Assembly: GCA_041665165.1 (NCBI GenBank)
Contig: JBAYJJ010000001.1
Location: 7,210 to 71,209, forward strand
DNA: 64,000 bases
Origin: Patescibacteria group bacterium
Lineage (GTDB): Bacteria; Patescibacteriota; Patescibacteriia; 2-12-FULL-60-25
Direction: 5' to 3'
The translations under genes and the position numbers were made by a program. Positions 1 to 47,774 of this stretch are shown here, one piece after another; within the stretch, counting starts at the first letter, position 1, and the number at the start of each line of letters is the position of its first letter. The notes beneath the pieces are model-generated. The model saw only the letters and a program-made list of their open reading frames with translations. It did not search any database and was not told the origin of the DNA.

Positions 1-691
1 GCATCATGCTCAGGATAACGACTGATGAAAGGATGGCTACACTGCCATATGCCTTAAGGTCGAGCGGTTTGCCGGCTTCAGCCTTGCCCATCAGCTTGGC
101 CACGAGCAAAGATCCGATGGTGGATCCGCCATACCAAGCAAAGATGAACTGGAAAACCGTCAAACCCTTGAGCGCGAAATACCTTTCGGCAAAACCCACG
201 ACTCCCCAGATGACGCTGTAAATTGCGATCCAGCCGAAGATCTTGAGCGGATAGCCTTTTTGGGACTTATCTCGGTTGCGCATGACCGTGAAAACCAGGG
301 CTCCGCCCAAGCACAATGCCACGCCCAGCAAAAGAACTGGTTTGACCAAGCTGCCCTCGCCCAGGATGATGAGTCCCAAGGAAATGGCGATCAGGTCATC
401 GGCCTGCGTGAACAATGACGTGCCGCTCAGGCTGATATCCATAGCCCTCCATTGGGCATAGGCACCGAAACTGTTGGCGATCCCCAAGCCTGCCACGAGC
501 AGCATGGTGTGGCCCAAGGTCAAAGGCGTCCTTGTCACAAGCAGGAGAATCGCGGACAGGATGAAGCAGAACAGGAACTGGAACGTCAACCGTCTGGTCC
601 GCGAAGGAAGGCCCACCATTCTTTTCAGGATAATGGGAGCAACGCAATAGACAAAAAAGACTCCACAGATAACTACTGCTTGCCACGGCAT
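1..691 (-). CDS. EamA/DMT-family permease; N-terminal ~230 aa, 3' end lies beyond the left edge
   Basis: The minus-strand frame is open from the ATG at 691-689 (preceded by GGAGGAAAGCC) to the window edge. It is absent from the ORF track because it has no stop in the window. Hand translation MPWQAVVICGVFFVYCVAPIILKRMVGLPS...LVAGLGIANSFGAYAQWRAMDISLSGTSLFTQADDLIAISLGLIILGEG is multi-pass hydrophobic and EamA-like. Confidence 0.55.
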   Translation of the reverse strand, partial: MPWQAVVICGVFFVYCVAPIILKRMVGLPSRTRRLTFQFLFCFILSAILLLVTRTPLTLGHTMLLVAGLGIANSFGAYAQWRAMDISLSGTSLFTQADDLIAISLGLIILGEGSLVKPVLLLGVALCLGGALVFTVMRNRDKSQKGYPLKIFGWIAIYSVIWGVVGFAERYFALKGLTVFQFIFAWYGGSTIGSLLVAKLMGKAEAGKPLDLKAYGSVAILSSVVILSMM

Positions 692-865: not shown

Positions 866-1951
866 ATGCCCCAGCCCATGTTAATCAAAACGCCCAAAGG
901 AGACAGGAAAATCGGGCCTGGATATCCGACTTTTATAATTGCCGAACTTTCTGGTAACCACCAGCAAAGTTATGAGCGCATACTCAAACTGATCGACGCA
1001 GCGATTGAGGCTGGAGTGGATGCCGTAAAGACCCAAACATTCAAACCTGAAACCATAACCCTGGAATCTGACAAAGAATATTTTCAAGTCAAAGTCAATG
1101 ATGCCTGGGCAGGCCAGACCTTGTTCAGCCTTTATCAAAAAGTCGTCACGCCCTGGGAATGGCAGCCGAAGATGAAAGAATATTGCGAATCACGCGGCGT
1201 CTTGTTTTTCTCCACGCCTTTTGACCCTTCGGCTGTAGATTTTTTGGAAAGCTTGGATGTCCCTTTGTATAAAATCGCATCGTTCGAGACCGGCGACATC
1301 GGGCTTCTGCGCAAAATCGGACAGACAAAAAAGCCAGTCATCATGTCGCGCGGCTTATCGACCGAAGAGGATATCAAGCTCGCGTTAGAGACTTTGAAAC
1401 AGGCCGGTTCTCCCAGCGTCTCGGTTCTGCATTGCGTCAGCTCTTACCCAGCCACGATAGACCAGATGAACATAGCCACCATCCCGGATATTACAAAGCG
1501 TTTTGACGTGGTGTCCGGATTGTCCGATCACTCCTTGGGGACGACCGCGGCCGTGGCCAGTGTTGCGCTCGGGGCCAGCATCATAGAAAAGCATCTGACC
1601 CTGCGCCGGACTGACGGCGGACCAGATGCGGCCTTCTCGCTTGAACCCGAGGAAATGAAAGATTTGGTAAAGACTATTCGCGAGGTTGAATCAGCTATAG
1701 GTGTTCCATCATACACACCAGATAAAAAAGAATCCGAAAATATTATCTTTAGGCGTTCTCTTTTTGTGACCAAAGACATCAAGAAAGGTGAAAAATTCAC
1801 AAACGAGAATGTGCGCTCAATCCGCCCGGGCAATGGCCTGCACCCCAAATTCCTGGACGATGTGCTTGGGAAGTCAGCCACGCAAGACATTGAATATGCG
1901 ACTCCTTTAGCCTGGGAAATGGTGGACAAAGAATCAAATAAAAAAATATGA
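866..1951 (+). CDS. pseI: Pseudaminic acid synthase (NeuB/PseI family, with C-terminal SAF domain)
   Basis: 361 aa. Motifs IAELSGNH, KTQTF, YKIASFE and GLSDHSLG are present. The C-terminal RSLFVTKDIKKGEKFTNENVRSIRPGNGLHPKF closely resembles PseI proteins. pseB and pseC lie in the same locus. Confidence 0.8.
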   Translation: MPQPMLIKTPKGDRKIGPGYPTFIIAELSGNHQQSYERILKLIDAAIEAGVDAVKTQTFKPETITLESDKEYFQVKVNDAWAGQTLFSLYQKVVTPWEWQPKMKEYCESRGVLFFSTPFDPSAVDFLESLDVPLYKIASFETGDIGLLRKIGQTKKPVIMSRGLSTEEDIKLALETLKQAGSPSVSVLHCVSSYPATIDQMNIATIPDITKRFDVVSGLSDHSLGTTAAVASVALGASIIEKHLTLRRTDGGPDAAFSLEPEEMKDLVKTIREVESAIGVPSYTPDKKESENIIFRRSLFVTKDIKKGEKFTNENVRSIRPGNGLHPKFLDDVLGKSATQDIEYATPLAWEMVDKESNKKI

Positions 1952-2880
1952 AAAAAATAAACCGAATACTTTTCACTTGTGCCGGCGGCAGCGGCCCGTT
2001 GTACTTGGCAAAAAAGATGCGGAAAAAATACAAAGTCTTTTTGGTTGATGCCAGCCCCAATTCCCCTGCCCCGCAGCTTGGTTTGCCCTTCAGGGTCGTG
2101 CCCTTCGGCAGCGACCCCAAATACATAAATAAACTCAGTGCCTTGATCCGCCAGTGGCGCATCCAGTGCATCGTGCCTGGTGCGGATGAGGAGCTTTTGC
2201 CGGTCAGGCAGCTGTGCGAAAAAATCCCTGGCTTAATGGCTGTGATGCCCAGCGCCAGTTTCACCCGGCTTTGCCTAAACAAAAAAAATCTCATGGTGGC
2301 GCTCGAAAAACTCGGGATTTCATCCATCGAAACTTACCGCAGCCCAGGCCAAGTCAGATATCCGGCCATCATCAAGCCCATTTTTGGGCGCGGCTCAAGA
2401 GGCGTGCACACGGTCAAGGATAAAAAACAACTCTCTGGATATTTGGCGCTTTACAATAAAAAATTCAATGACCTGTTGGTCCAGCCCTATATCCCTGGCG
2501 ACGAGTATACTGTTTCTTTGATAGTAAACAATCGCAACCAATTGCAAGGCATTGCACCCAAGAAAATCATCCAAAAAACCGGGATTACCAAAGCCGCTGT
2601 TTCCCAAGGCCAGCCTGCGATAACGAAAGCCTGCAAAAAAATCGTGGAAAAACTAAAACCTATGGGGCCATGCAACATCCAGCTCAAGATCTGGAAAGGC
2701 AAAGCCTATATCTTCGAAATCAATCCCCGTTTATCGACCACTTCAGTATTGACGGACAAGTGCATGGGCAATGAGGTTGAGCTTTACATCCAATCCTATG
2801 ATGCGCAACCTAAAAAGATGGGCTTTATTCAGGGCATCAAGCTTTTCAGATACGATGAAAATGTTTTTCAGAATCCATGA
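1948..2880 (+). CDS. ATP-grasp domain protein (carboxylate-amine ligase type)
   Basis: 310 aa with a 4-nt ATGA overlap onto pseI. YPAIIKPIFGRGSRGV...LVQPYIPGDEYTV...IFEINPRLSTT matches the ATP-grasp fold pattern. Confidence 0.7.
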   Translation: MKKINRILFTCAGGSGPLYLAKKMRKKYKVFLVDASPNSPAPQLGLPFRVVPFGSDPKYINKLSALIRQWRIQCIVPGADEELLPVRQLCEKIPGLMAVMPSASFTRLCLNKKNLMVALEKLGISSIETYRSPGQVRYPAIIKPIFGRGSRGVHTVKDKKQLSGYLALYNKKFNDLLVQPYIPGDEYTVSLIVNNRNQLQGIAPKKIIQKTGITKAAVSQGQPAITKACKKIVEKLKPMGPCNIQLKIWKGKAYIFEINPRLSTTSVLTDKCMGNEVELYIQSYDAQPKKMGFIQGIKLFRYDENVFQNP

Positions 2881-3569
2881 ACTACATAATTGGAGACATC
2901 CACGGCAATTTTACGGAACTGGAAAAACTACTGACCATCATAAAACCCCAGGCGAACGACCGACTGATTTTTCTTGGTGACTACCTAGACAAGAACTCAG
3001 GCACGAAACGTACGCTAGACCTGCTTCACCAGCTCGCTGATACTCATGACTGCGTTTTCCTTAAAGGCAACCATGAATACGTGTGGGAAAAATATTTGCT
3101 TGGCCATGAATTGCAGCGTCGGGATTTCTTGCTGAAGTTCGGCGGACTTGAGATGCTCAAGGAATTTTCGCCTGAAGCAGAGCGTTTATTGCTCGAGGAC
3201 AAGATTGATGCTATTTCGGTATTTCTAAAGGAATATCTAAATCTACTTCCGCACATGAAAAATTATGCGACTGTTGGATCTTATTTAGCACTTCATGCAG
3301 GAATCACGGATGAACAAATGGATTCGACCCCTCTGGTCTTTGATGAACCTAACTACTTTTTGCGGCCTGATCACATTCCGACTGAGCTCAAATATCTCGG
3401 CCAATACACACTAGTGGCCGGCCATACGCATTTAAGCCCAGAGCCAGTAAAGCTCCCGGGCTACATTAATGTTGATTTAGGCGCTGGCTTTGGCAAATAT
3501 CTAGGCGCTTTTTGCCCTGAAACAAGCCAAGTCATCCGGTCTGACGGCAAAATCTTTGAACTGGGCTAG
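2877..3569 (+). CDS. Metallophosphoesterase (calcineurin-like, PP1/ApaH type)
   Basis: 230 aa. Carries the canonical GDIHGN...GDYLDKN...GNHE...GHTH motif series and has a 4-nt overlap with the upstream gene. Confidence 0.8.
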   Translation: MNYIIGDIHGNFTELEKLLTIIKPQANDRLIFLGDYLDKNSGTKRTLDLLHQLADTHDCVFLKGNHEYVWEKYLLGHELQRRDFLLKFGGLEMLKEFSPEAERLLLEDKIDAISVFLKEYLNLLPHMKNYATVGSYLALHAGITDEQMDSTPLVFDEPNYFLRPDHIPTELKYLGQYTLVAGHTHLSPEPVKLPGYINVDLGAGFGKYLGAFCPETSQVIRSDGKIFELG

Positions 3570-3613
3570 CCCTTGAACTTGTTTGATGGATATGGTAATA
3601 AAAGACAGACATT

Positions 3614-4288
3614 ATGCCTAAAAACATACTAGTCGTAGCCGCCCATCCGGATGACGAGCTGCTGGGAGCCGGGGCCACGCTCCGCAGACATGTCGAGAAC
3701 AACGACCAGGTTTTTGTATTGATACTGGGCCAGGGTGCTTTATCGCGCGATCCCAAGGCGCAAGACGAGGTAAAGAACCTGCAGGAACAAACTCGCCGAG
3801 CAAGCGAGATCATCGGTTTCAAAGGAATATTTTTTGCAGGTCTACCGGACAATGCTTTTGATGCAGTAAGCCTTCTTTCGATCACAAAAGAGATTGAAGA
3901 AGTTTTGGCCAAAATCAAACCTGCGATAGTCTACACTCATCATGAATACGATTTAAATATAGACCACCAACTTGCTTTCCAAGCCGTGCTCACAGCCTGC
4001 CGCCCGTGCAACCCCTGTGCGCCCAAAACAATCTATTCTTTCGAAACTTTGTCCTCGACAGAGTGGCAGACCAAAGACAGCAAGCAGTTCGCACCGAATG
4101 TTTATGTTGATATCGGGCAGCAACTCGAGAAAAAAATCCAGGCGCTCAAATGCTACACATCTGAAATGAGGGAATATCCGCACTCCAGGTCCGAGCAAGG
4201 CGTGCGCATTCTTGCCCAATATCGCGGGCTGGAATCAGGTTTGCGCGCAGCCGAGGCTTTTCGCTTAATCCGCAAAATACAGAAATGA
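3614..4288 (+). CDS. PIG-L/LmbE-family N-acetyl-sugar deacetylase
   Basis: 224 aa. The N-terminal VVAAHPDDELLGAGATL motif and a later HHEYDLNIDH motif are typical of the PIG-L family. Confidence 0.8.
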   Translation: MPKNILVVAAHPDDELLGAGATLRRHVENNDQVFVLILGQGALSRDPKAQDEVKNLQEQTRRASEIIGFKGIFFAGLPDNAFDAVSLLSITKEIEEVLAKIKPAIVYTHHEYDLNIDHQLAFQAVLTACRPCNPCAPKTIYSFETLSSTEWQTKDSKQFAPNVYVDIGQQLEKKIQALKCYTSEMREYPHSRSEQGVRILAQYRGLESGLRAAEAFRLIRKIQK

Positions 4289-4872
4289 ACTCTTTAGCCG
4301 CAGAACTCCAAGACATGGTGCTGGCACAGCCTCCTTGCAAAGCTGACGCCATTATTTGGCTCCAAGGGGACAGGTTTAATCGCGCCCAAAAATGCCTGAA
4401 TCTTTATCAGGCTGGCTTTGCGCCATTACTGGTGCTGACTGGAAACAATCAACTTTTAGGAAAAGACGTACGGCCCGAAGAAGACAATGTCTCGCTCCAA
4501 CAGATGCAAGACTGGCTGATGGAGCGCGGCGTTCCAGAGGGCGACATCTTGATCGAAGATAAATCCTTGAACACACGGGATCAGGCTGTCCAGATGATCG
4601 ACTTGGCAGTTTCAAGAAACTGGTCTGCCTTGCTTTTGGTCGGCTCATCCTACTATCAGATGCGCGCCTTCCTGACTTTCTTGAAATACGCGCAAGAAAT
4701 GAATTGGACAGGAAGAATAGTGAATCAACCTGTCATCATCCCGACTGAATCTATTCCCCAAGGACGCGAAAAAACCGCAGCCGAATATTTTACGCTTGAA
4801 TTGGAAAAAATAAACAAGTACCAAGACCACGTGGCCAGCATCCAGGCTGGCGTGGACTATTTGAACAAATAA
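4285..4872 (+). CDS. DUF218/YdcF-like protein
   Basis: 195 aa. ADAIIWLQGD...LLVLTGN...DKSLNTRDQA...LLLVGSSYYQMRAF fits the DUF218 pattern (E/D-x-S-x-NT...A, then H/Y-x-x-R). Confidence 0.6.
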   Translation: MNSLAAELQDMVLAQPPCKADAIIWLQGDRFNRAQKCLNLYQAGFAPLLVLTGNNQLLGKDVRPEEDNVSLQQMQDWLMERGVPEGDILIEDKSLNTRDQAVQMIDLAVSRNWSALLLVGSSYYQMRAFLTFLKYAQEMNWTGRIVNQPVIIPTESIPQGREKTAAEYFTLELEKINKYQDHVASIQAGVDYLNK

Positions 4873-4896
4873 AAAACCCGGGATTTGGCACCGGGC
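4871..4896 (-). terminator. Hairpin plus T-run downstream of the GNAT gene
   Basis: CCCGG (4877-4881) pairs with CCGGG (4891-4895). On the minus strand this is followed by TTTTTT (the complement of 4871-4876). It lies directly after the GNAT stop codon at 4900-4902. Confidence 0.45.
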
Positions 4897-4899
4897 AAG

Positions 4900-5349
4900 C
4901 TACCGCAGATTCAGGCGGTAATAATTGACATCAAGGCGTTCGAAGCCCAACGAAAGGTAGAGCCTGTTCGCAGCCTCGCGGTCCGGCCAAGTCGTGAGCA
5001 CGACCCTCTTTACGCCCCGCACTTGGGCGATTTTGAGCAACTGCAGCATCATTTCTTTGCCGATTCCGCGGCCTTCATAAGACTGGCTGACAACAACGTC
5101 CTCAACGACTGCTTCATGGCCAACCAGCATCGGCACTTCGATGAGGCGCGCCATGCCGACAAGCAAGCCATTAGCTTCCGGGTCCTTGGCCAATACAATG
5201 TGCATGCCAACAATGGCGCTGATCCGCTTCAGGTCAGCCTCAGTAAGTACCGGGCTATTCGGGCTCAAGCGCTTCAGGAGGCTGTTGATAGCCTCCAGAT
5301 CCTCGTGGCCAATGGAGCTCGGGCTTTCGCTCAGTAAAAGGTAAATCAT
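4900..5349 (-). CDS. GNAT-family N-acetyltransferase (candidate PseH-like step)
   Basis: 149 aa. Has the acetyl-CoA motif YEGRGIGKEMMLQLLKIAQVRG and a GAGGAG ribosome-binding site 4 nt upstream of the ATG. Confidence 0.75.
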   Translation of the reverse strand: MIYLLLSESPSSIGHEDLEAINSLLKRLSPNSPVLTEADLKRISAIVGMHIVLAKDPEANGLLVGMARLIEVPMLVGHEAVVEDVVVSQSYEGRGIGKEMMLQLLKIAQVRGVKRVVLTTWPDREAANRLYLSLGFERLDVNYYRLNLR

Positions 5350-5363
5350 AACTCCTCTTGGGC

Positions 5364-6656
5364 TTATCTGACCTTAAAAATATTGGTTATCGGTTCACCG
5401 ACCAGCTCTTTTTTGAGCGTGCCTTTTTCAAGCACTTGCTTCAGCTTGGGCAGGACTTTGGCATAAGCCCGGATGGTCGTATCCAGATCTTTCTGCGAAT
5501 GGCTGAAGCTCATGTTGTGCTGGCCATACCAAAGGATGCCTTCTTGCAAAATTTCCTGTTGCACATAGCTCTTTATCTCTAAGTCTGAAAAACCATTTGA
5601 CGGCGTAAAGAAAATAACTTGCCAGCATGGTTTGCCTTTTATTTTGATGACCGAGTCCAGGCCGTTCTTCTTGATGAGCGCATTCACTTTCTCCTTAAGA
5701 TATGTGCCTTTTTTCCAGATAGTCGGAATCACATTCTTTTTTTCCATTTCCTTGATGGTGGCAATGGCCGCAGCCAACGAAAGCGCCTCACCTCCATTGG
5801 TGAAAGAATAGAATATGTCTGCCACGCGCTTCATATATATCTTTTTTCCGACCAAGGCGGAGATAGGCATACCATTAGCCATGGATTTTCCGAAAGTCGC
5901 AAGGTCAGGCGTAATCCCGAAATATTTTTGGGCGCCGCCCAGGCCCCAGCGGAAACCGGTTATGACTTCGTCAAAAACCAGGAGCGCTCCGTTTTTATGC
6001 GCGATTTCCTTGACCTGCTTCAAAAAATCCTTGTCCGGCTCATAATAATTCATGGGTTCCATTATTACAGCCGCGATTTTCCCGTGATATTTCTTGAAAA
6101 GCTTTTTAAGCGAGGCAATGTCATTGTAGGCGAACGGGTGGGTCAATTTTTGGGTCGACACCGGAACGCCCAGTTTCCTGGTCGTGGATCCGATATACCA
6201 ATCGTGCCAGCCGTGATAACCGCAAGCAGCCACGTGTTCGCGGCCTGTGACTGCCCTGGCCACGCGAATCGCTCCGGAAGTGACATCGCTGCCGTTCTTT
6301 CCGTAGCGCACCATCTCAGCGCAAGGGATGTGCTTTATGAGAAGCTTGGCCAGCTCATCTTCCAAGGGCGAAGGCAATGGGAAAGCAATCCCCTTTTTAA
6401 GTTGTTTTTTTATGGCCTCGTCCACCGGCCCGTAGCAATGGCCCAAAATGACAGGCAAAAGCCCGTTGATGAAATCAATATACTCATTCCCATCCACATC
6501 CCAGACATGCGAGCCTTTGGCATGGGTCACGAACAACGGAGAGCCGCCTTTGACGTATTGCAGATAGCATTTACTGAAAGTCTGCGCAGCCAAAGGGATC
6601 CTCTCCTTGACAGAGCTGAACATCTTTTGGCTTTTGGCAAATGAACGTTTTTTCAT
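5364..6656 (-). CDS. Class III PLP aminotransferase (glutamate-1-semialdehyde aminomutase-like)
   Basis: The track ORF begins at a TTG at 6740 and overlaps the upstream gene. The first ATG at 6656 gives MKKRSFAKS.... Motifs GSHVWDVDGNEYIDF, EPMNYY, LVFDEVITGFR and FGKSMANG (the PLP lysine) are present. Confidence 0.8.
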   Translation of the reverse strand: MKKRSFAKSQKMFSSVKERIPLAAQTFSKCYLQYVKGGSPLFVTHAKGSHVWDVDGNEYIDFINGLLPVILGHCYGPVDEAIKKQLKKGIAFPLPSPLEDELAKLLIKHIPCAEMVRYGKNGSDVTSGAIRVARAVTGREHVAACGYHGWHDWYIGSTTRKLGVPVSTQKLTHPFAYNDIASLKKLFKKYHGKIAAVIMEPMNYYEPDKDFLKQVKEIAHKNGALLVFDEVITGFRWGLGGAQKYFGITPDLATFGKSMANGMPISALVGKKIYMKRVADIFYSFTNGGEALSLAAAIATIKEMEKKNVIPTIWKKGTYLKEKVNALIKKNGLDSVIKIKGKPCWQVIFFTPSNGFSDLEIKSYVQQEILQEGILWYGQHNMSFSHSQKDLDTTIRAYAKVLPKLKQVLEKGTLKKELVGEPITNIFKVR

Positions 6657-6664
6657 ATTTTCGG

Positions 6665-7621
6665 TTAAGAAAGAATATTTTCTAAAGTCATGGTAGCAAA
6701 AGCGATGGGATTTTGCGAGGCTTTTCTTGTGTTGATGCAAGATAAAAATTCCGACACTTCCTTCAGATACATGTTGTTGTTGTCCGCTTTTTTGAACTCA
6801 ACTATTTTTTTTGTGGTATTTTTTGTTTCCAGCCAGACTGCATTCTGGTTCATATCCCAATTCAAGCTGCCTTTTTCTCCGATGACCCTGCATTTGCGCG
6901 AGTAAGACTGCTGCAGATAATCGCAGGATACGGAACCGATGACCTTGTTCTTGAATTGATAAGCGGCAATGCACATATCCTCGGTCTGGATGCTCAATCC
7001 CCCGACCTTATCGGAAATCAGCGCGCGCTTCTGGACAGGCGAGAAACCATTCAACCAAAACAGCAGATCAAACTCATGGATATCATCCAGGATTATGCCG
7101 CCGCCCGTAGATTTTTTGGCTGCATAGTTCTTCCTGTAATCCTGATGCGGCCTCCAATACGGCAAAAAATAACCAAACTCGTGCCTGATGCTGTAGATTT
7201 TACCCAGCCTGCCTGAATCCAGGTATTTCTTGATGAAGGCTGGCCCAGGATGAAACCTTATGTTGCATCCTACCATGGTAATAAGTTTCTTCCTCTTGCA
7301 TTCGTCGCCCAGCGCCCGGACTCCGTTCAGGTTATGGGACAGTGGTTTTTCAATGAACAAATCGCACCCAGCCTTGGCGCAGATGGCAGCATGTTTGATG
7401 TGCAGGTTATTCGGCGTGCATATAAAAGCGACCTTGAATTTCTTGGCTGTCGCAATATCAAATTTCTGGATCCGGCCGATGACAGCTTGGCTATCAAAAG
7501 CCGAATCCAGCGGGTCAAAGACCGCGATATTCGTGTAGCCCAAAGCCATCAGATTGCTATAATGCCTTTTGCCGATAGACCCGAAGCCTGCGATTAAGAT
7601 TGGCGTAGATTTGCTCAGCAT
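6665..7621 (-). CDS. Gfo/Idh/MocA-family NAD(P) oxidoreductase
   Basis: The track start at 7633 is a TTG; the ATG at 7621 sits right after the pseC stop. Has the N-terminal Rossmann motif ILIAGFGSIGKRH, the EKP motif (LFIEKPL) and a C-terminal alpha/beta domain. Confidence 0.8.
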   Translation of the reverse strand: MLSKSTPILIAGFGSIGKRHYSNLMALGYTNIAVFDPLDSAFDSQAVIGRIQKFDIATAKKFKVAFICTPNNLHIKHAAICAKAGCDLFIEKPLSHNLNGVRALGDECKRKKLITMVGCNIRFHPGPAFIKKYLDSGRLGKIYSIRHEFGYFLPYWRPHQDYRKNYAAKKSTGGGIILDDIHEFDLLFWLNGFSPVQKRALISDKVGGLSIQTEDMCIAAYQFKNKVIGSVSCDYLQQSYSRKCRVIGEKGSLNWDMNQNAVWLETKNTTKKIVEFKKADNNNMYLKEVSEFLSCINTRKASQNPIAFATMTLENILS

Positions 7622-7622
7622 A

Positions 7623-8753
7623 TTATTGGGCAAGGATGTTTTTTAGAGTCTGGATCACAAAATCCTGATCTGTTCCGCTCAGCCCCGGAAACATGGGCAA
7701 AGATATTTCAGCCGCATAATAGTCCTCGGCCTTGGGGCACAGGCCTTTGGCATAGCCGAGCTTTTGGTAGTATGGATGCAGATGAACCGGGATATAATGG
7801 ACTTGTACACCGATGTTGGCCGCGCGCAGGGCTTCAAACACCTCTCTACGGCGCTTGATCCATTCACCCTGCAAGCGCACAGGGTACAAGTGCCAGCCCG
7901 AACGTGCGCCCTGGTGGACTGTCGGCAACTTTAATTCTTTGATGTCTTGGAAGGCTTCGTCGTATCTTAAAGCGATCTTCTCGCGCGCAGAAATGAACTG
8001 ATCGAGTTTTTTCAGCTGGCTCAGACCCAAAGCGCATTGGAAGTCAGTCAGCCTGAAATTTTCTCCCAAAGCCTGCATTTCATAATACCAAGGCCCGTCT
8101 GGCTCGTGTTCAAAATTCTCTTTTGTTATTCCGTGCGTCCGGAAAAGCTTCAGTCTGCGCGCAAAATCAGGATTGTCCGTCAGCACTGCGCCGCCTTCGC
8201 CTGTAGTGATGGGTTTGACCGGATGGAAACTGAAAACCGTCATATCAGACAAGGTTCCGACTTTTTTTCCGTTTTGCGAGGCGCCGAGCGCATGGCAAGC
8301 ATCTTCGATGACGATCAACCCGTGTTCTTTCGCGATTTTATTTATTTCCTCGTGCTGGATCGGGTTGCCTGAATAGTCTATGGGCACGATAGCCTTTGTT
8401 TTCGGCGTAATCAAAACCTTGATCTTTTCAGGATCAATGTTCCCCGTCTCAGGATCAATATCCGCAAATATTGGTTTGCCGCCCTGCCAGATGCCGGCAT
8501 TGGATGTGGCAGCAAAAGTCAGAGGTGAAGTGATGAACTCATCGCCCGGCTGGAAATCAGCGGCAAAATAAGCTGCCTGGAGCGCAGACGTGCCGTTGTT
8601 GAAGACGATTGCGAAAGAAGCTCCGCAATAATCTGCCAGCGCTTTTTCGAATTCTTCGACTTTAGGCCCCTGGGTCAGCCAATCAGAACGCAAAACATCG
8701 GCAACAGCCTTAATGTCCTCTTCGTCTATGGATTGGTGGCCGTAAGGAATCAT
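7623..8753 (-). CDS. pseC: UDP-4-amino-4,6-dideoxy-N-acetyl-beta-L-altrosamine transaminase (DegT/PseC type)
   Basis: 376 aa. Features are IPYGHQSIDEEDIKAV..VLRSDWLTQGPKV, FSFHPVKPITTGEGG (the PLP lysine), NFRLTDFQCALGLSQLKKL, and a C-terminal AEISLPMFPGL. Confidence 0.8.
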   Translation of the reverse strand: MIPYGHQSIDEEDIKAVADVLRSDWLTQGPKVEEFEKALADYCGASFAIVFNNGTSALQAAYFAADFQPGDEFITSPLTFAATSNAGIWQGGKPIFADIDPETGNIDPEKIKVLITPKTKAIVPIDYSGNPIQHEEINKIAKEHGLIVIEDACHALGASQNGKKVGTLSDMTVFSFHPVKPITTGEGGAVLTDNPDFARRLKLFRTHGITKENFEHEPDGPWYYEMQALGENFRLTDFQCALGLSQLKKLDQFISAREKIALRYDEAFQDIKELKLPTVHQGARSGWHLYPVRLQGEWIKRRREVFEALRAANIGVQVHYIPVHLHPYYQKLGYAKGLCPKAEDYYAAEISLPMFPGLSGTDQDFVIQTLKNILAQ

Positions 8754-8754
8754 A

Positions 8755-9933
8755 TTATTTGCTCCCGATTAAATATTTAATCTCGCTGTTTTCTTCAAAG
8801 ATTTTTTTTACGGATATTATCCGCATCTTTCCGCCCAGGCCCTCAAGGAAACTTGTGATTTCGCGGTCATAATCTATGGCGCAGACGAAAATCACGTCTA
8901 CTGGGTCGGACAGCAGATTCTGCGGAGGCTCCACAGGCTGGGCTGAGCACGACATGAACTTGCCTTGCTTGGCCGCGTCCGTGTCGAACAATCGCGGCTC
9001 TACCTTGAATTCAAGCGACCCAATCAATACGTCGCTGCCGGCATACATACCGATTGTCTTGCCGTTATTTTCAAAAACATCAATCAGGGCCTGCAAGCCA
9101 GAAAGATTCTTCTTGAGATTCTGCTGAAAGCTCTCAAATATCTCAAGACCGTCCGCCTGGACAAGATTCTCGCTTTTTTTTGCGTCCTTATTCGAGCCCC
9201 AAGCATAGAGCATGGACCGTTCATCTGAGCTGATGACTTCAACCTCAGAAAATCCGGCGGCTTCCAGGATATTCGTCAGCGAACTTTTTGTGAAATAATT
9301 CAAGTGCTGGTGCGAGATGATGGAAGGATCGCCGATGCGCAATTTCTTCTCGCAATCCGGGACAGCGAAAAAAGCCAAGCCATCGGGAGCTAATATCCGC
9401 TTCATTTCTTGGATAAAAACTTCGGGCTGCTCGACATGCTCCAGCACAAGGTGAGTCAAAGCCACGTCATACTTTTCAATTATCTGATCTGAAGGAAAAA
9501 AATCCCTGAGCATGGGAATGTGATACTTTTCTGAGCCACTTATCCCCTCTTTCCCGGGCTCCACTCCAAGTATTGATTTGGCGCCGGCTTTTCCCAAAAG
9601 ATGCAGCAAATACCCATAAGCGCAGCCTATTTCGATGAAGCTTGAGCCCTGAATTGTTTTATCGGCTTTTTCCAGAGCCTGCTCCAAAATCAAATAGACC
9701 TGGTCTGCCTGTTTGCTGGCGAACTCGCCTTCGCCCAAAGGGGTAGATCCATAGCCGCCCTGTTCATAATATTTGCGCAAGGCTGATTTGGTTTCCTGGT
9801 CAGGCACCTGAGTTATCAAACCGGTTTCTTCGTCAACCTGCAAAGTAAAAGGCAAAAACCGCGGAAAAACAATGCTCCTTTCAGCGCAATACCCGACATC
9901 GAACGGAAGGCGTGAAAGAAAGAGCTGCTTCAT
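8755..9933 (-). CDS. SAM-dependent methyltransferase with an NDP-hexose C-methyltransferase-type C-terminal domain
   Basis: 392 aa. Has the SAM motif FIEIGCAYGYLLHLL. The C-terminal ...FDTDAAKQGKFMSCSAQPVEPPQNLLSDPVDVIFVCAIDYDREI resembles the TylCIII-like C-methyltransferase tail. Confidence 0.6.
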   Translation of the reverse strand: MKQLFLSRLPFDVGYCAERSIVFPRFLPFTLQVDEETGLITQVPDQETKSALRKYYEQGGYGSTPLGEGEFASKQADQVYLILEQALEKADKTIQGSSFIEIGCAYGYLLHLLGKAGAKSILGVEPGKEGISGSEKYHIPMLRDFFPSDQIIEKYDVALTHLVLEHVEQPEVFIQEMKRILAPDGLAFFAVPDCEKKLRIGDPSIISHQHLNYFTKSSLTNILEAAGFSEVEVISSDERSMLYAWGSNKDAKKSENLVQADGLEIFESFQQNLKKNLSGLQALIDVFENNGKTIGMYAGSDVLIGSLEFKVEPRLFDTDAAKQGKFMSCSAQPVEPPQNLLSDPVDVIFVCAIDYDREITSFLEGLGGKMRIISVKKIFEENSEIKYLIGSK

Positions 9934-9936
9934 AAC

Positions 9937-10938
9937 TTATGAACGGATCAGGGCCAATAGCTCCTTCAGGCCAGCATCGTCCAGCCAGTTCGGATTTGTA
10001 TCGCTGCAAAAAGAGAACCCGCTCTCAAGCATCCGGCCGCCTACCCTTTCTTTTGCCTGCTGGTCAAACGAAAACTCCGGATAGATGACATATGTGCTTT
10101 CGAGTTCGACCGCATGGTGCGATTCTTCGGGCGTTATCAAGACTTCGTGCAGCTTCTCGCCAGGCCTGATGCCGATGATCTTCAATTCGCATTCAGGCGC
10201 CAAAGATGTAAGCAAGTCCTTTACCCGCATGCTCGGGATCTTTGGTATGAAAATCTCTCCGCCGTTCATGCATTCCATGCTGTTCATCACCAGCTCGACT
10301 CCTTGGTCCAGGGTAATCCAAAAACGCGTCATGTCCTCGTGAGTCAAAAGGACCACGCCTGTCTTGCGCTGGTCTTCGACCAATTTAAGCAAGCTGCCGC
10401 GGCTGCCCAGCACGTTACCGTATCTGACGGCGCTGAAAAGCGTCTTGTTGTTGGAATAGACGTTGGCGCTTATGCACAAACGTTCGGCGCAAAGTTTGGT
10501 TGCGCCATAAAGGTTCGCCGGATTGGCGGCTTTGTCCGTGGAAATCAACAGCACTTTTTCGACGCCGTTGTTTATGGCCGCAGTGATTACATTTTGAGTG
10601 CCGATGATATTCGTCTGAATGGCTTCAAACGGGTTGTATTCCAAAGCCGGGACTTGTTTGAGCGCGGCCGTATGGATCACAAAATCCACGTCGCGGAAAG
10701 CCAGCTGGAGGCGCGGCAGGTCGCGGACATCGCCCAGAAAAAAGCGAAGGTTGCTGTCCATGCCTTTGAAGGCAGTCTGCATCTGCGATTGCTTCAGCTC
10801 GTCGCGGCTGAAAACGATGATGCGCCTGGCCTGTGATTTTTCGATCAAAGTCCTGACTAGCCTCTGGCCCAATGAGCCTGTGCCGCCGGTCACCAAGATG
10901 GATTTGCCGTTGAGATATTCTAAGTTCATATGTTTCAT
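9937..10938 (-). CDS. pseB: UDP-N-acetylglucosamine 4,6-dehydratase, inverting (PseB/FlaA1 type)
   Basis: The track start at 10950 is a TTG; ATGs occur at 10938 and 10929. Motifs ILVTGGTGSLG, IIVFSRDELKQ, STDKAANPANLYGATK, MTRFWITL and GGEIFIPKIPS match PseB rather than CapE. Confidence 0.85.
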   Translation of the reverse strand: MKHMNLEYLNGKSILVTGGTGSLGQRLVRTLIEKSQARRIIVFSRDELKQSQMQTAFKGMDSNLRFFLGDVRDLPRLQLAFRDVDFVIHTAALKQVPALEYNPFEAIQTNIIGTQNVITAAINNGVEKVLLISTDKAANPANLYGATKLCAERLCISANVYSNNKTLFSAVRYGNVLGSRGSLLKLVEDQRKTGVVLLTHEDMTRFWITLDQGVELVMNSMECMNGGEIFIPKIPSMRVKDLLTSLAPECELKIIGIRPGEKLHEVLITPEESHHAVELESTYVIYPEFSFDQQAKERVGGRMLESGFSFCSDTNPNWLDDAGLKELLALIRS

Positions 10939-10952
10939 TTTAGAAGGCAAGA

Positions 10953-11954
10953 TTAGACGTTTTTCAGCACAATGTCAACAATTTTCAGGATAGTGCTTTC
11001 AGTGATTTCTTGGTGGCAAGGCAAACCGACGCATACCCGATAGTCAGGCTTAAGCATGTTCTGTCGAATGTCAAAATGGTAAAGCCCTGTTTCAATGCCG
11101 CTGGCCTTCAATTTATCAACTACACGTTTGGCTGAGCTGGGCTTCAGGAACAAAGGCATGGCCCAAGGCAAGACATCATCAACATATAAGGAGTGCACGT
11201 CGAACCGGGCAAAAGCCGACCTTAAAAGTTCATAATTTCTTTTCCGCTTCGCCAGCGCCCCTTCGTTCAAGCCTTGGCGTACGATGTTCAGCGATATCCC
11301 TGGGCAAGGAAACAGCCTGTCATAAATCGCGTAGTTCCTCTCGAGTTCGATGCTGTTTTCATGAGTGGAATTCTTTTCGCATAAGAATCTGCGCAAAAAA
11401 ACTTGTTTGGACAGTTTGTCTTCGTGTATTTTTAATTTATCAGCCACAAATCTTTTCAATGCCCTGTTTCTTGTCCAGATAGCGCCTCCGACCACGCTTG
11501 GGAAAAATTTAGCCAAGCTGAAGATTGAAGCGTCCCCCAGCGTGCCCAACCTCTGGTCTTGATAGTTGCTGAAAGCCGCGTGCGCGCAATCTTCTATGCA
11601 GAACAGATTCTTATCCGAACAGAATGCCTTAATGGCTTTCATGTCCTGCGGAAAGCCCCATTGGTGATAGACCAGGATGCCTTTCACTTTTTTATTGAAA
11701 ACCGTGGTCGGGAAACAATGCTTATGCATGGTCATGTACACCCAATAGCCTATCCATTCCGGGACTAAAACCTGCTCTGACTTATCTTTCAAGCGGCCTA
11801 TGCTCCGATAATATTGGAGCAAAATGGCCAGCGCTGACTTTCCGGAAAATGTATACAAGATATCCTTGTCGAGCCCGGCCCCAAAAATGTTGCCTGACAA
11901 GCGGGGCTTGATGGGTTTTATGGCCACTGGAAAAGGGTTGAAATTTATCCTCAT
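10953..11954 (-). CDS. Divergent DegT-like PLP enzyme (fold type I)
   Basis: 333 aa. ILVYHQWGFPQDMKAIKAF...FCIEDCAHA...GTLGDASIFSLAKFFPSVVGGAIWT follows the DegT pattern (vh..G.p.dm, iEDaAhA, fSf..K). It is shorter than canonical members. Confidence 0.55.
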   Translation of the reverse strand: MRINFNPFPVAIKPIKPRLSGNIFGAGLDKDILYTFSGKSALAILLQYYRSIGRLKDKSEQVLVPEWIGYWVYMTMHKHCFPTTVFNKKVKGILVYHQWGFPQDMKAIKAFCSDKNLFCIEDCAHAAFSNYQDQRLGTLGDASIFSLAKFFPSVVGGAIWTRNRALKRFVADKLKIHEDKLSKQVFLRRFLCEKNSTHENSIELERNYAIYDRLFPCPGISLNIVRQGLNEGALAKRKRNYELLRSAFARFDVHSLYVDDVLPWAMPLFLKPSSAKRVVDKLKASGIETGLYHFDIRQNMLKPDYRVCVGLPCHQEITESTILKIVDIVLKNV

Positions 11955-13075
11955 ATTTGCTCAGGCATCGAAAACAACAAAGCGTTATCAACGAACTGGC
12001 CTGTTTTCTGTTTTAATTCGGCTCTCATGGCACCATTGTCCAAATACCCCATCCATTTTATTTTTGGCAAAAACATGCCCCCGTACCGCTCCTTGAAAAC
12101 GCTGATGGAAAGCTCCTTTGCGCTGGGAACATGATAAAGCTGGGGCGTAAAATACCTCTCGCCGATTTCATAGTATTTGAAACCTTTTTGTTTGTAATAC
12201 AGTATCGCTTCCCATTCCAACAAATGCCGTGGTGAATACTCTTTCTCGAATTCATCCAAATTGATTTGGGACCAGCCAAAGGCCATGCAATCGAATTCGC
12301 CGCAATACAAAAAACTGATTGCCTCGTCTTTCAGGTATGTTACGAACAGCGTGGCCTTGCCCTGGCGCATGCCGTCAAGCATGGAATCCCACGTCGCTTG
12401 CGGCCTGGTCATGCGGCCAGCCGACTTGATGTGCGTATCTTCGAAAATCTTGAAGATCCGATCGATTTGGTCCGCGTTGTTCTCTCTATTGAATACACGG
12501 ACCGCTAAGCCCTTTTTGTAACCGCGCTTTATATGCCTCAAATGGTACTTGCTCACATCCGCGCTCAAGTCCTCGATTTTCTTTTCCAGATCAACAGCGA
12601 TTGTGTTCTCGACCTCATAAATCAGGTTGTAGCGGAGCAGCTCGAACGTCGCGGGCTGGATGACTCCTCCCTCGTGCATAAACAGAGTGTTTAACGGATC
12701 CCAAAAAAAAGAAACTTCACTCGCCTTGTTTTCTTTGGCGAAGGCAAGGATTTCCGAAATAATGTTGTCCAGTATTTTCTTACGGTCTTGCCTGGGCATA
12801 GGCGCTACCACCGGCACGCCGCAAGGAGCATGGCCGAACGAAATAGAATGCACGCCCCTGTCTTTCAGATAACTGGACGCCAAGCTACAGATGGCGAGCG
12901 GCTTGCCTGTATGGTCGATGAACGCGAAAGAAGCGTTTTTTTCCACTTCCTCGAATTTCGAAAAATAGTCCAGCAGAGCCGCGGAATGAAAATGACAAGA
13001 ACCTGGCACGTTCAGCACCCAGGCATCCCACTCTTTTGCCGAAACATCAGAAAAAAGTACTTTTTTATACTCCAT
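11951..13075 (-). CDS. FemAB-like / BioF2-like GNAT-fold acyl(aminoacyl)transferase
   Basis: 374 aa with an ATGA overlap onto the next gene. The layout is W..W....HF.....L, then YHLRHIKRGYKKGL, then ATLFVTYLKDEAISFLYCGE....SPRHLLEWEAILYYKQKGFKYYEIGE. This is typical of the FemX/FemAB fold. Confidence 0.6.
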   Translation of the reverse strand: MEYKKVLFSDVSAKEWDAWVLNVPGSCHFHSAALLDYFSKFEEVEKNASFAFIDHTGKPLAICSLASSYLKDRGVHSISFGHAPCGVPVVAPMPRQDRKKILDNIISEILAFAKENKASEVSFFWDPLNTLFMHEGGVIQPATFELLRYNLIYEVENTIAVDLEKKIEDLSADVSKYHLRHIKRGYKKGLAVRVFNRENNADQIDRIFKIFEDTHIKSAGRMTRPQATWDSMLDGMRQGKATLFVTYLKDEAISFLYCGEFDCMAFGWSQINLDEFEKEYSPRHLLEWEAILYYKQKGFKYYEIGERYFTPQLYHVPSAKELSISVFKERYGGMFLPKIKWMGYLDNGAMRAELKQKTGQFVDNALLFSMPEQI

Positions 13076-13077
13076 AC

Positions 13078-14868
13078 CTACTGCCTTACATTATATACCT
13101 TATAAAAATATGATTCTGGATCTTTGAGCAAGTCCTGCGGTGCTCCTTGTTCGATGATTTTCCCTTCGGATAAAGCCATAATCCTATCCGCGCACAATAC
13201 GGTCGAGAGTCTGTGGGCGATGATGAGCACGGTTATCTTGCCCTTGAGCGACTCGATTACGTTTTGGATCTGCACCTCGGACTCGTTGTCCAATGCGCTC
13301 GTAGCCTCGTCCAAAACAAGCAACTTCGGCTTGCGGGCAAGGATTCTTGCGATAATGATCCTCTGGCGCTGCCCGTTCGAGAGCATGGTCCCGCGTTCGC
13401 CGACCAGCGTCTCGAATTTATTCGGCAAAGTCTGGATGAAATCGTATATATTGGCGCTCTTCGCCGCTTCCTCGATCTCGGCGTCGGAAATGCGCTTGTA
13501 GAAACGGATATTCTCCGCAATGGTGCCGTTCAGCAAAAACATGTCCTGTGATACATAGCCGATGCTGTTGCGCCATTTATCGAGGTTTATTTCGCTCACA
13601 TCGCGGCCATCCAACAGGATTTTTCCGGATGACGGATCAAGCAAACGCAAGGCCAAATCCATAAGCGTTGTCTTGCCCGCACCTGAAGGCCCGACTATGC
13701 CCACTATCTCTCCCCGCTTCACCGAAAAACTGACGCTGTTCAAGATTGGCCTGTCTTGGGCATAGGCAAAACCGACATCATCGAAATCAAAACTTTTCTT
13801 GAAGACAAAATCCGAAGCCGAACCCGTCTTTTCCTTACGTGATTTCATCTCATCTTCCAGCATATTCACTGACTGGAGGTAAGGCGCATACTCATTCAAC
13901 GCCCGATAATTGGATTGCATGGCCTGAAAATAAGTAAAAATGCGCTGGATCAAATAGACAATGGCTGCAAAAGCGCCGAGCTGGAAAGCTGCGGTCTTAT
14001 AATAAAATGCGAACAAGAAACAAATAAAGACAACCCCCATCGGCTGCATCAAGGCATCTCCCAGGGAGCGCTGAAATGCGATCTTGACGTAAGCATTCCG
14101 GTACTGTTCAAAATCATTTTTGCCCACGGTCGCGATTGAGTTGGCCACGGCCATGGTCTTGACAGTTTTCATGCCCATGACATTCTCGTTCAAAAAATGG
14201 GCAATGGTTTTGTTAACGGTTTCCATAATCCGCGAATTTTTGCGTGTTTTTCCGAAACTGGATTTCAAGAACCAGAAAAATACGACCCCGAGAATCAAGG
14301 TCATGGCCGTAATCGGCGCAGAGATGCTGAAAGCGATCAGCACATATACGGCCAAATTAGTGACGATTATGATTAGGGAACTGGTGTTCTCCAGAACCAA
14401 GGTCGCATAACGGACATTGGTCATTAAGACAGTTTCCAAATGACCCAAGCGCTGTTTGAGCAAAAACGACCAATCCGCATCCAAAAACAGTTCAAGCAAG
14501 GCCTGCCGCTTGTGATACTCATAGTTTGCCGAAATTCTGACTTTTATCCAGTTGCTCAAAATCAACATCAATGACCTTAAGATAAACAGACCGGCTATGA
14601 AAAGCAAAAGATATTTGAGGGTAAAACTCAATCCCAAAAGATTAAAAAAGCTTCCGATGAATTGGGTGAGCGCGTCTTGAGCGCCTGGGCCGCCAGAACT
14701 TTTGGTCAACAGCGAGAACAGCGGTATGAGCGAGCCCACGCCCACGCCTTCGAGCAAGCCGCTGAAAAAACCCAAAAAGACCATGACCCCGATACCCCAT
14801 TTGTATTTGCCAAATCCGTTGCTGACAAGCTTGATGAAGCGGACTGCGCGCAGTTGGTTCCAAGACAT
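13078..14868 (-). CDS. ABC exporter, fused permease-ATPase (MsbA/PglK type)
   Basis: The track start at 14892 is a GTG; the ATG at 14868 avoids overlap. It has six N-terminal hydrophobic segments, Walker A GPSGAGKTT, signature LSNGQRQR and Walker B LLVLDEATSALD. Confidence 0.85.
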   Translation of the reverse strand: MSWNQLRAVRFIKLVSNGFGKYKWGIGVMVFLGFFSGLLEGVGVGSLIPLFSLLTKSSGGPGAQDALTQFIGSFFNLLGLSFTLKYLLLFIAGLFILRSLMLILSNWIKVRISANYEYHKRQALLELFLDADWSFLLKQRLGHLETVLMTNVRYATLVLENTSSLIIIVTNLAVYVLIAFSISAPITAMTLILGVVFFWFLKSSFGKTRKNSRIMETVNKTIAHFLNENVMGMKTVKTMAVANSIATVGKNDFEQYRNAYVKIAFQRSLGDALMQPMGVVFICFLFAFYYKTAAFQLGAFAAIVYLIQRIFTYFQAMQSNYRALNEYAPYLQSVNMLEDEMKSRKEKTGSASDFVFKKSFDFDDVGFAYAQDRPILNSVSFSVKRGEIVGIVGPSGAGKTTLMDLALRLLDPSSGKILLDGRDVSEINLDKWRNSIGYVSQDMFLLNGTIAENIRFYKRISDAEIEEAAKSANIYDFIQTLPNKFETLVGERGTMLSNGQRQRIIIARILARKPKLLVLDEATSALDNESEVQIQNVIESLKGKITVLIIAHRLSTVLCADRIMALSEGKIIEQGAPQDLLKDPESYFYKVYNVRQ

Positions 14869-21342: not shown

Positions 21343-22440
21343 ATGAAAGTCGCAATCATAATCGGCACTAGGCCTGAAATAATCAAAATGTCCCCCTTGA
21401 TTAGGACCTGCACCGAAAAAAGGCTTGATTTTTTTATTGTCCATACCGGCCAGCACTATGATTATGAGCTTGACGGAAAAATGTTCAAGGACCTTGGCCT
21501 GCCCAAGCCAAAATACAATCTGAACGTCGGCGGCAAGCCATACCGCATCCAAAAAAGCCTGATGATCAGGGAGATGGCTGATATTTTTAAACGCGAAGGA
21601 GTTGATGTAGTAGTGGTCCAAGGCGATACCAACAGCGTGCTGGCCGGGACCCTGGCCGGCCTCAAGACCAATTGCAGGGTCGCCCACCACGAGGCTGGTT
21701 TACGCAGCCACGATCTGGGTATGCTGGAAGAAGTGAATCGCATTATCACGGATAACGTGGCTGATTATCTATTCGCTCCGACCAAGACAGCGCTGAAGAA
21801 CCTCGAGCAAGAGGGTTTGAAAAAGCATTCTTATTTGACAGGCAACACGATTACTGACGCGGTTATCCAGAACTCAGAAATTGCCCGAAAAAAATCCATG
21901 ATCTTGCGCAAACTGAAACTGAAAAAATCAAGCTTTGTCTTGGTCACGACCCATCGTGCCGAAAACGTCGATGACAAAAATAAGCTCAGTAATATTTTGG
22001 CTGGATTGGACGCAGTCTCCAAAAAACTAAAACTCCCGGTCATTCTCCCCTTGCACCCGCGCACAAAATCCAATATCGAAAAATTCAGCCTCAAAAAACC
22101 CAAATCCATCAAATTCATCAAGCCTTTAGGCTATTTGGACTTCCTTAATCTGGAAGCTAATGCCAAATTGATAATCACCGACTCCGGCGGCATCCAGGAA
22201 GAGGCTAGTATCCTGAAAATACCCTGCGTGACCATCCGCGAGAATACTGAACGGCCTGAAACCATAAAAGCCGGGATAAACTTATTGGCCGGCACTGACC
22301 CGAAAAAAATCCTGGCATGTTCTGAACGGATCATAAAAAACAAAAAAAAATGGGGCAACTTGTACGGCAATGGCGATGCAGCTGAAAAAATAATGGACCA
22401 TATCATAAGGTTGGAAGCAGAATATGGCAATTTATATTAG
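21343..22440 (+). CDS. wecB: UDP-N-acetylglucosamine 2-epimerase
   Basis: 365 aa. Motifs are MKVAIIIGTRPEIIKMSPLI, VVVQGDTNS, HHEAGLRS and TDSGGIQEE. Whether it is hydrolysing or non-hydrolysing cannot be decided by eye. Confidence 0.85.
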   Translation: MKVAIIIGTRPEIIKMSPLIRTCTEKRLDFFIVHTGQHYDYELDGKMFKDLGLPKPKYNLNVGGKPYRIQKSLMIREMADIFKREGVDVVVVQGDTNSVLAGTLAGLKTNCRVAHHEAGLRSHDLGMLEEVNRIITDNVADYLFAPTKTALKNLEQEGLKKHSYLTGNTITDAVIQNSEIARKKSMILRKLKLKKSSFVLVTTHRAENVDDKNKLSNILAGLDAVSKKLKLPVILPLHPRTKSNIEKFSLKKPKSIKFIKPLGYLDFLNLEANAKLIITDSGGIQEEASILKIPCVTIRENTERPETIKAGINLLAGTDPKKILACSERIIKNKKKWGNLYGNGDAAEKIMDHIIRLEAEYGNLY

Positions 22441-42519: not shown

Positions 42520-42530
42520 TTTGCTTATCT

Positions 42531-47647: not shown

Positions 47648-47774
47648 AAACTACTTAAAAAAATGACACAGCTTTCCAAAGCTCCCCTCTTGACAAAGGA
47701 GCCAAATTACTGGTAAGAAGCTCTCACTAGAGATGAAGGAGCGATCCTTCGACAACTCAAACAGGAGGTTGGTG

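Follow-up and report, generated by a model that had tools for sequence, protein, structure and literature searches.

A pseudaminic acid-type locus without PseG in a Patescibacteria group bacterium, and a DUF218 protein as candidate for the vacant step

The gene cluster described here lies at positions 866-14868 of a 64,000-nt stretch of DNA from a Patescibacteria group bacterium (contig JBAYJJ010000001.1, positions 7,210-71,209 of the forward strand; this whole stretch is called the window, and all coordinates are window positions). We think it probable that the cluster directs the biosynthesis and transfer of a nonulosonic acid of the pseudaminic acid (Pse) type, which is heavily N-acylated and probably carries a C-methyl and an extra amino group, and that the step of the UDP-sugar hydrolase PseG is performed here by a non-homologous enzyme of the locus. 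The best candidate for this enzyme is a protein of the DUF218 family, whose gene had not been listed in an earlier, sequence-only reading of the same DNA. The basic pathway is known; what is new is a recurrent PseG-less variant of it, found mainly in the candidate phyla radiation (CPR), together with a specific candidate for non-orthologous displacement. Nonulosonic acids rank among the major determinants of cell surfaces; within Pse synthesis, the PseG step is considered obligatory and open to drug targeting.

Core enzymes and the PseG step

The sequence-only reading had recognised pseB, pseC and pseI, and the products of all three genes exceeded their NCBIfam equivalog cut-offs. PseB scored 439.1 bits with TIGR03589 (cut-off 407.75), and PseC scored 508.5 bits with TIGR03588 (cut-off 423.5), as compared to 238 with the LegC model (cut-off 420). 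PseI scored 458.3 bits with TIGR03586 (cut-off 340.25) but only 317.9 with the NeuB model, under the cut-off of 399.65. The best solved relative of this NeuB homologue was the pseudaminic acid synthase 8H2C (305 bits), ahead of SpsE (196) and NeuB (181), and the protein thus groups with PseI. The placement outside PseI that would have refuted the sequence-only reading was therefore not observed. Every gene of the tailoring set named in that reading was also found by domain scans. These genes belong to the pathway, since they are operonic with pseB, pseC and pseI, and since the ATP-grasp ligase, phosphatase, PIG-L and methyltransferase recur with PseB/C/I in dozens of loci. The cluster is thus a heavily tailored Pse-type locus, as had been proposed.

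The only Epimerase_2 protein of the window (21343-22440) was considered as a hydrolysing epimerase of the NeuC/LegG kind and rejected. Its score was 361 with the non-hydrolysing WecB equivalog (cut-off 210) and 85.5 with the NeuC model (cut-off 235.9), and it is absent from the related loci.

PseG was searched for in several ways. Pfam and NCBIfam scans gave no Glyco_tran_28_C/PseG match in any scanned open reading frame (ORF) of the window, and an iterated search seeded with canonical PseG found none among its six-frame ORFs. With a profile built from seven PseG sequences and applied with --max to six-frame ORFs from 40 aa upwards, the best E-value was 0.12 between -1947 and 64000, and 2.9 on the right flank (+9.9 kb). 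This flank is provided by a second public contig, which adds 9,903 nt (to +73,903) and contains housekeeping genes only. The reported absence of PseG therefore extends to 75.9 kb, from -1947 to +73,903, comprising the window and both flanks.

Related loci from genomes and metagenomes (designated below by L numbers) were compared with the window. ORF families were clustered over 19 of them, seven with PseG and twelve without. Only two families were exclusive to the PseG-less set, namely DUF218 and one of about 300-350 aa that has no Pfam match. A metagenome scan anchored on PIG-L returned 38 loci of at least 6 kb, among which PseG was found in 22, DUF218 in one, and both in none. When 57 loci gathered without DUF218 as bait were considered, PseG was present in 29 and DUF218 in seven, again never together (hypergeometric P = 0.0045). 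Three further loci found through DUF218 itself (L090-L092) were all PseG-less.

The DUF218 gene abuts a formyltransferase gene in L008, L017, L090 and L121, and a GNAT gene in L019, L091, L092 and, in convergent orientation, in the window; in L016, it is located between pseC and pseI. For PseG, the usual arrangement is fusion with a PseH-like GNAT or with a formyltransferase, the latter in L030 (10725-12470) and L031. The surroundings of DUF218 mirror these fusions, and its position thus supports DUF218 in the PseG slot.

The protein matched PF02698 well above the cut-off of 27.6 bits. Its AlphaFold2 model (pLDDT 92.8) had E. coli YdcF (3CA8) as best Foldseek match, with an E-value of 1.2e-6 and a TM-score of 0.58-0.62, and the next matches were HUP-class nucleotide-binding enzymes. 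No homology between DUF218 and PseG was detected by hhalign; therefore, any replacement of PseG by DUF218 would be non-homologous. A UDP-sugar resembles the intermediates from which peptidoglycan and enterobacterial common antigen (ECA) are made in that its sugar is linked through a diphosphate. For the DUF218 paralogues SanA and ElyC, an enzymatic action on peptidoglycan and ECA intermediates has been proposed (PMC12176290). We tentatively propose the DUF218 protein as the PseG substitute, i.e. a non-homologous UDP-sugar hydrolase, and as the best lead for this step.

The second exclusive family, of about 300-350 aa, was considered as a divergent PseG and rejected: hhalign gave a probability of 0.4%, no relative was found in the PDB, the family co-occurs with PseG in L114, and it is absent from the window. 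Its genes are next to pseB or pseF in L005, L009, L016, L021, L091 and L092. The proteins have conserved SEP and R-x-HPSE motifs, and share HP- and QPE-like motifs with the 503-aa putative transferase described below. They are probably small CMP-sugar-binding transferases.

Finally, a gene for an AP_endonuc_2 protein (xylose-isomerase-like TIM barrel) was found only in four well-covered clusters (L005, L009, L093 and L115), which have neither PseG nor DUF218. This three-way exclusivity of AP_endonuc_2, PseG and DUF218 suggests that the pathway slot is filled by alternative enzymes.

Activation, the phosphatase module and rival explanations

The sequence-only reading had also reported that pseF was missing, and had suggested a non-canonical activation step. 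Indeed, no CTP_transf_3/PseF gene was found inside the 64-kb window, either by Pfam and NCBIfam scans of the sizeable ORFs or by an iterated search seeded with canonical PseF. However, the ENA contig ERZ27249449 k141_526182, which matches the window identically over 11,951 nt and encodes the exact PseI, reaches 1,947 nt further left. Leftward from pseI, it contains a membrane protein gene, a CTP_transf_3 gene 319 nt before the first base of the window, and the end of an acetyl-CoA synthetase gene, within which the contig stops at -1947. The lack of pseF was therefore an artefact of the window edge, and with a cytidylyltransferase gene adjoining the locus an unusual activation step is not supported. 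This calls for caution in window-based scans: one of two "missing" genes sat just past the edge.

The closest structure to this cytidylyltransferase was 6OEW ("Cytidylyltransferase", E = 3e-39), and orthologues with 39-41% identity were present within related clusters. In a set of 48 related loci, 27 had this CTP_transf_3 subfamily alone, 19 had canonical PseF alone, and only two had both. Such near-exclusivity is the pattern expected of two isofunctional types. Altogether, the cluster is very likely a Pse-type locus with conventional CMP activation.

The metallophosphoesterase encoded third in the pseI operon has the Metallophos metal motifs GDxH, GDxxD and GNHE, with invariant residues G6, D7, H9, G34, D35, G64 and H66 in the consensus GDIHAN, FLGDYIDK and GNHE. 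The solved structures related to it over the full length are those of the phosphomonoesterases lambda phosphatase (1G5B) and PnkP (4J6O), and it resembles the calcineurin-type PPP enzymes; weak matches to the Ap4A hydrolases ApaH and PrpE were limited to the N-terminus. The orthologues form a tight clade (45-57% identity), almost all from Patescibacteria (Chisholm-, Peri-, Komeili- and Magasanikbacteria, Saccharibacteria, Paceibacterota), which in itself makes a CPR origin of the window likely. The records of two of these loci, L010 (the closest, with 84% identity) and L013 (50%), one of them a 597-kb contig, carry the label "uncultured Gammaproteobacteria"; as the other lineage-named orthologous loci in the list are Patescibacteria, these are probably mislabels.

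Wherever the metallophosphoesterase occurs in the related genome and metagenome loci, with or without PseG, it lies in the order pseI, ATP-grasp, (SDR in some), phosphatase, PIG-L. ATP-grasp orthologues (51-57% identity) follow pseI in L005, L007, L008 and L009, and PIG-L was present in 19/19 compared loci, PseG-bearing or not. The metallophosphoesterase thus belongs to a widespread, uncharacterised tailoring module located after pseI and independent of PseG. Our literature search found nothing on pseudaminic acid together with a metallophosphoesterase, an ATP-grasp enzyme or a deacetylase. Elsewhere in the window, a 969-aa protein (23130-26039, minus strand) consists of an unassigned N-terminus of about 300 aa, a PRK12767-like ATP-grasp domain (aa 325-636) and a PHP/CehA-McbA metallohydrolase domain (aa 708-912). 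This second pairing of an ATP-grasp ligase with a phosphoesterase, here in fused form, hints that the coupling of the two is functional.

How the UDP-sugar is hydrolysed could be explained in other ways. According to the sequence-only reading, the metallophosphoesterase would replace PseG, with activation being non-canonical as well. The operonic association with pseI and the ApaH/PrpE matches are in favour of this model, as is the fact that some calcineurin-like phosphoesterases, such as LpxH and UshA, cleave UDP-sugars. However, a genuine PseG accompanies orthologues with 45-55% identity in L007, whose 4.77-Mb genome also encodes Maf and flagellin, and in L012 and L018, two Peribacteria loci; the L018 PseG is named by NCBI as UDP-2,4-diacetamido-2,4,6-trideoxy-beta-L-altropyranose hydrolase. 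More distant relatives are also beside PseG in L024, L025, L030 and L031, making seven loci in all, and the PseG-less clusters L090-L092 have no such metallophosphoesterase. Given, in addition, its phosphomonoesterase relatives, the metallophosphoesterase is in all likelihood not the PseG substitute, and with a cytidylyltransferase adjoining the locus the complete model becomes very improbable. It could still act in two steps with DUF218, the latter cleaving the UDP-sugar to UMP and sugar-1-phosphate and the PPP-type phosphatase then freeing the sugar. The DUF218 fold resembles HUP-class enzymes acting at the alpha-phosphate, the phosphatase is of the monoesterase type, and the two are encoded together in the pseI operon in the window and in L008, L016, L017, L019 and L021. 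This scheme is nevertheless improbable: DUF218 occurs without Metallophos in L090-L092 and L121, and Metallophos is kept in PseG-bearing loci.

The reading in which DUF218 stands in for PseG has several points against it. The exclusivity of the two families is confounded by phylogeny, DUF218 loci being nearly all from CPR and PseG loci mostly not, and truncation affects many of the metagenome loci. Since DUF218 forms a fusion with the Gfo/Idh/MocA oxidoreductase in L021 (2431-4062) and usually follows PIG-L, it could be a tailoring enzyme instead. The fusions in L021, L030 and L031 tie DUF218 and PseG alike to neighbouring pathway steps. The literature assigns no biochemical activity to any DUF218 protein and does not tie the family to nonulosonic acids. 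As for the other steps, the out-of-window cytidylyltransferase scored 20.9 bits with the PseF equivalog (cut-off 205.7). A GNAT, earlier suggested as a possible PseH, is present at the locus, but it has no detectable relation to PseH: the PseH equivalog gave no match at E <= 1e-5, neither PseH domains nor the GNATs from related loci resemble it, and these loci contain no orthologue. Moreover, about 76 kb of the genome is in view, and L005, L009, L093 and L115 are well covered yet lack both PseG and DUF218, which means either that PseG can be encoded elsewhere or that further substitutes exist.

It is thus possible, though less likely than not, that a canonical PseG is encoded elsewhere in the genome and that the pathway is an ordinary one with added tailoring, DUF218 being an accessory enzyme, for example with Gfo/Idh/MocA or PIG-L. 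Some Patescibacteria do have PseG (P0159, L012, L018). Against this, the gene was inside the nonulosonic acid cluster in all PseG-bearing loci (29/29), and about a dozen CPR loci from differing lineages have none within +-10 kb. PseG and DUF218 were strictly exclusive, with DUF218 in the position of PseG next to an N-acyltransferase. Finally, PseG-less clusters occur on near-complete CPR contigs such as CAYMVY010000001.1 (597 kb, DUF218-type), JALNYW010000001.1 (784 kb) and JAKFZD010000003.1 (both AP_endonuc_2-type); among the best 120 of 3,188 relatives of CPR PseG, none was on a large contig bearing a DUF218-type or other PseG-less cluster, a weak and non-decisive test. We therefore retain DUF218 as candidate and suggest, with reserve, that a cytoplasmic DUF218/YdcF enzyme displaced the GT-B hydrolase PseG in CPR-type Pse clusters and frees 2,4-diacylamino-2,4,6-trideoxy-L-altrose from UDP, while AP_endonuc_2 may fill the slot in a few other lineages.

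Tailoring enzymes, locus layout and other features of the window

The methyltransferase encoded between pseB and pseC, a position also seen in L005 and L009, has a SAM-methyltransferase core and a match to PF08484 (Methyltransf_14) above the cut-off of 23.5 bits. Residues 95-361 gave remote PDB matches to D-mycarose 3-C-methyltransferase (4RV9) and TcaB9, and the N-terminal zinc-binding domain of the TylC3/TcaB9 type was not detected in the protein. Fusions between the class III aminotransferase family and the CTP_transf_3 subfamily occur in L024 (5008-7080) and L093 (2470-4512) and link this cytidylyltransferase subfamily to the amination step. The 503-aa GT-B protein scored 35 bits with NF046086 (cut-off 200), and its KEHP and QPE motifs were conserved with pseI-adjacent homologues in L012 and L018. 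Transferases of the BFO_1060/Tanf_01245 kind are marked by HP and D/E-D/E-G motifs near the C-terminus. The BFO_1060 family includes Pse/Leg transferases of Tannerella forsythia (PMC5420450).

The locus consists of two convergent operons, running from pseI to DUF218 on the plus strand and from the ABC exporter gene to the GNAT gene on the minus strand (Table 1), and a divergent gene pair lies directly upstream. Most neighbouring genes within the operons share 4 bp or have no more than 14 bp between them; the single wider gap, of 44 bp, precedes PIG-L. Orthologues of the 292-aa membrane protein (33-35% identity) were found in the related clusters L005 and L009.

Table 1. Features of the locus and its flanks, in window coordinates, and of two gene families of related loci, in the coordinates of each locus.
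Feature	Position	Strand	Evidence or remark
CTP_transf_3 cytidylyltransferase, 252 aa	about -1077..-319	-	Pfam 109.7 bits; on identical public contig
Multi-pass membrane protein, 292 aa (3' part)	1..691	-	No Pfam match; between pseI and out-of-window cytidylyltransferase gene
pseI, pseudaminic acid synthase (NeuB family with SAF domain)	866..1951	+	TIGR03586; PDB 8H2C
ATP-grasp ligase, PRK12767-like, opens conserved tailoring module	1948..2880	+	Domain match
PPP-type metallophosphoesterase, lambda-phosphatase/PnkP/ApaH-like	2877..3569	+	PF00149 58.1 bits
PIG-L/LmbE-family de-N-acetylase	3614..4288	+	Pfam 85.8 bits
DUF218/YdcF-family protein, candidate PseG replacement	4285..4872	+	PF02698 59 bits
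GNAT acetyltransferase, possible PseH substitute; final gene of minus-strand operon	4900..5349	-	Pfam 58.9 bits
Class III aminotransferase, PRK06209-like	5364..6656	-	Family match
Gfo/Idh/MocA oxidoreductase	6665..7621	-	Family match
pseC, UDP-4-amino-4,6-dideoxy-N-acetyl-beta-L-altrosamine transaminase	7623..8753	-	TIGR03588
SAM methyltransferase with C-methyltransferase C-terminal domain, between pseB and pseC	8755..9933	-	PF08484 30.9 bits
pseB, inverting UDP-GlcNAc 4,6-dehydratase	9937..10938	-	TIGR03589
Partial DegT-like PLP enzyme, PLP_IMCC1989 type	10953..11954	-	PF01041 65.5 bits over part of model; faint PF27889 match
FemAB-like (Acetyltransf_6) enzyme	11951..13075	-	PF13480 35.1 bits; TIGR04421 71 (cut-off 250)
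MsbA/HepA/PglK-like ABC exporter, opens minus-strand operon	13078..14868	-	Family match
Capsule_synth/BFO_1060-like GT-B protein, 503 aa, candidate CMP-nonulosonic-acid transferase	15229..16740	+	PF05159 21.2 bits; NF046086 35 bits
AP_endonuc_2 genes	L005:14332-15084, L009:14331-15083, L093:10669-11430, L115:12388-13146		
Family of about 300-350 aa without Pfam match	L016:2959-3909, L021:5299-6345, L091:1437-2429, L092:460-1425, L114:17923-18930		CPR nonulosonic acid clusters

Downstream of the putative transferase, an 896-aa protein (18643-21333, plus strand) combines a B12-binding radical SAM enzyme with a GT4 glycosyltransferase. In a 632-aa protein (16748-18646, plus strand), a SAM methyltransferase is joined to a choline/ethanolamine-kinase-like domain. 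Both fusions are unusual. Further along the window, a 1,291-aa protein without Pfam match (36644-40519, minus strand) is encoded beside the genes for a DUF5667 protein and for an ECF-type sigma factor (40823-42546, minus strand); such a gene pair is common in CPR genomes. Finally, in the region 47733-52422, the GC content, elsewhere about 0.47, climbs to 0.62 at 48-50 kb, over a 653-aa ORF without Pfam match. After this ORF come a small GIY-YIG gene (49983-50414) and then the gene for a 623-aa protein containing MopE-type copper-binding repeats. The region may be foreign or compositionally odd DNA.

Proposed pathway, known systems and significance

By homology, PseB and PseC would make UDP-4-amino-4,6-dideoxy-L-AltNAc, whose 4-keto precursor stage may be C-methylated by the TylC3/TcaB9-like methyltransferase. 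The GNAT or the FemAB-like enzyme may acylate the N4 of the hexose. DUF218, or a PseG out of view, would then free the sugar from UDP, and PseI, again judging from homology, would condense it with phosphoenolpyruvate (PEP). After this condensation, PIG-L could strip the inherited N-acetyl group and the ATP-grasp ligase could re-acylate the amine. The PPP-type phosphatase may handle a phosphorylated substrate or intermediate of the module, for example by dephosphorylating a phosphorylated acyl substrate. The Gfo/Idh/MocA oxidoreductase and the class III aminotransferase might turn a hydroxyl into an amine. CMP activation would be provided by the out-of-window CTP_transf_3 protein, a cytidylyltransferase at the family level. 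The Capsule_synth/BFO_1060-like GT-B protein is the candidate CMP-sugar transferase, and the ABC exporter, with the products of many downstream glycosyltransferase genes, would assemble and export the glycan.

Like the canonical CMP-Pse pathway of Campylobacter jejuni and Helicobacter pylori (PseB, PseC, PseH, PseG, PseI, PseF), the locus has PseB, PseC and PseI equivalogs, a family-level cytidylyltransferase and a GNAT. It differs by the lack of any PseG homologue in 76 kb, by another CTP_transf_3 subfamily, by a GNAT that is not recognisable as PseH, and by at least nine extra enzymes. For the amination pair, a functional analogy may be drawn with Shewanella KdnB/KdnA, an oxidoreductase and an aminotransferase which form Kdo8N by converting a hydroxyl of the ulosonic acid to an amine; the enzyme families differ, however.

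The T. forsythia Pse5Am7Gra/Leg locus with Tanf_01245/BFO_1060 (PMC5420450, PMC5378307) offers another comparison, as it has a tailored Pse re-acylated at nitrogen and a dedicated GT-B transferase with an HP motif. The 503-aa protein of the window matches the BFO_1060 model weakly and has the KEHP motif, but its score is far below the family cut-off. Moreover, the window does not have the amidotransferase and HisH/HisF genes of related loci such as L005 and L007. The Pse island for flagellin glycosylation in L007 and the two Peribacteria loci, L012 and L018, share with the window the ATP-grasp, PPP-type phosphatase, PIG-L and methyltransferase orthologues (45-57% identity), next to pseB/C/I. 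Unlike the window, these three loci have a PseG-PseH fusion and no DUF218.

E. coli YdcF, SanA and ElyC belong to the same Pfam family as the DUF218 protein and have the same fold, but identity to YdcF is only 13-14%. In contrast to the E. coli proteins, the window protein is cytoplasmic and stand-alone, and the small clade to which it belongs occurs in nonulosonic acid clusters only. This clade has no invariant histidine to match the Thr-His-Glu triad proposed for SanA.

The locus suggests that CPR bacteria, about whose glycobiology little is known, display a C-methylated, extra-aminated Pse derivative on their surface, and the comparison defines ATP-grasp, PPP-type phosphatase and PIG-L as a widespread module awaiting characterisation. 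The recurrent PseG-less clusters also give a directly testable function for DUF218, the family of E. coli SanA, ElyC and YdcF. If the proposed role is true, this family would receive its first catalytic activity, the hydrolysis of a diphosphate-linked sugar, and this would give a clue to the action of SanA and ElyC on lipid-linked envelope precursors in E. coli.

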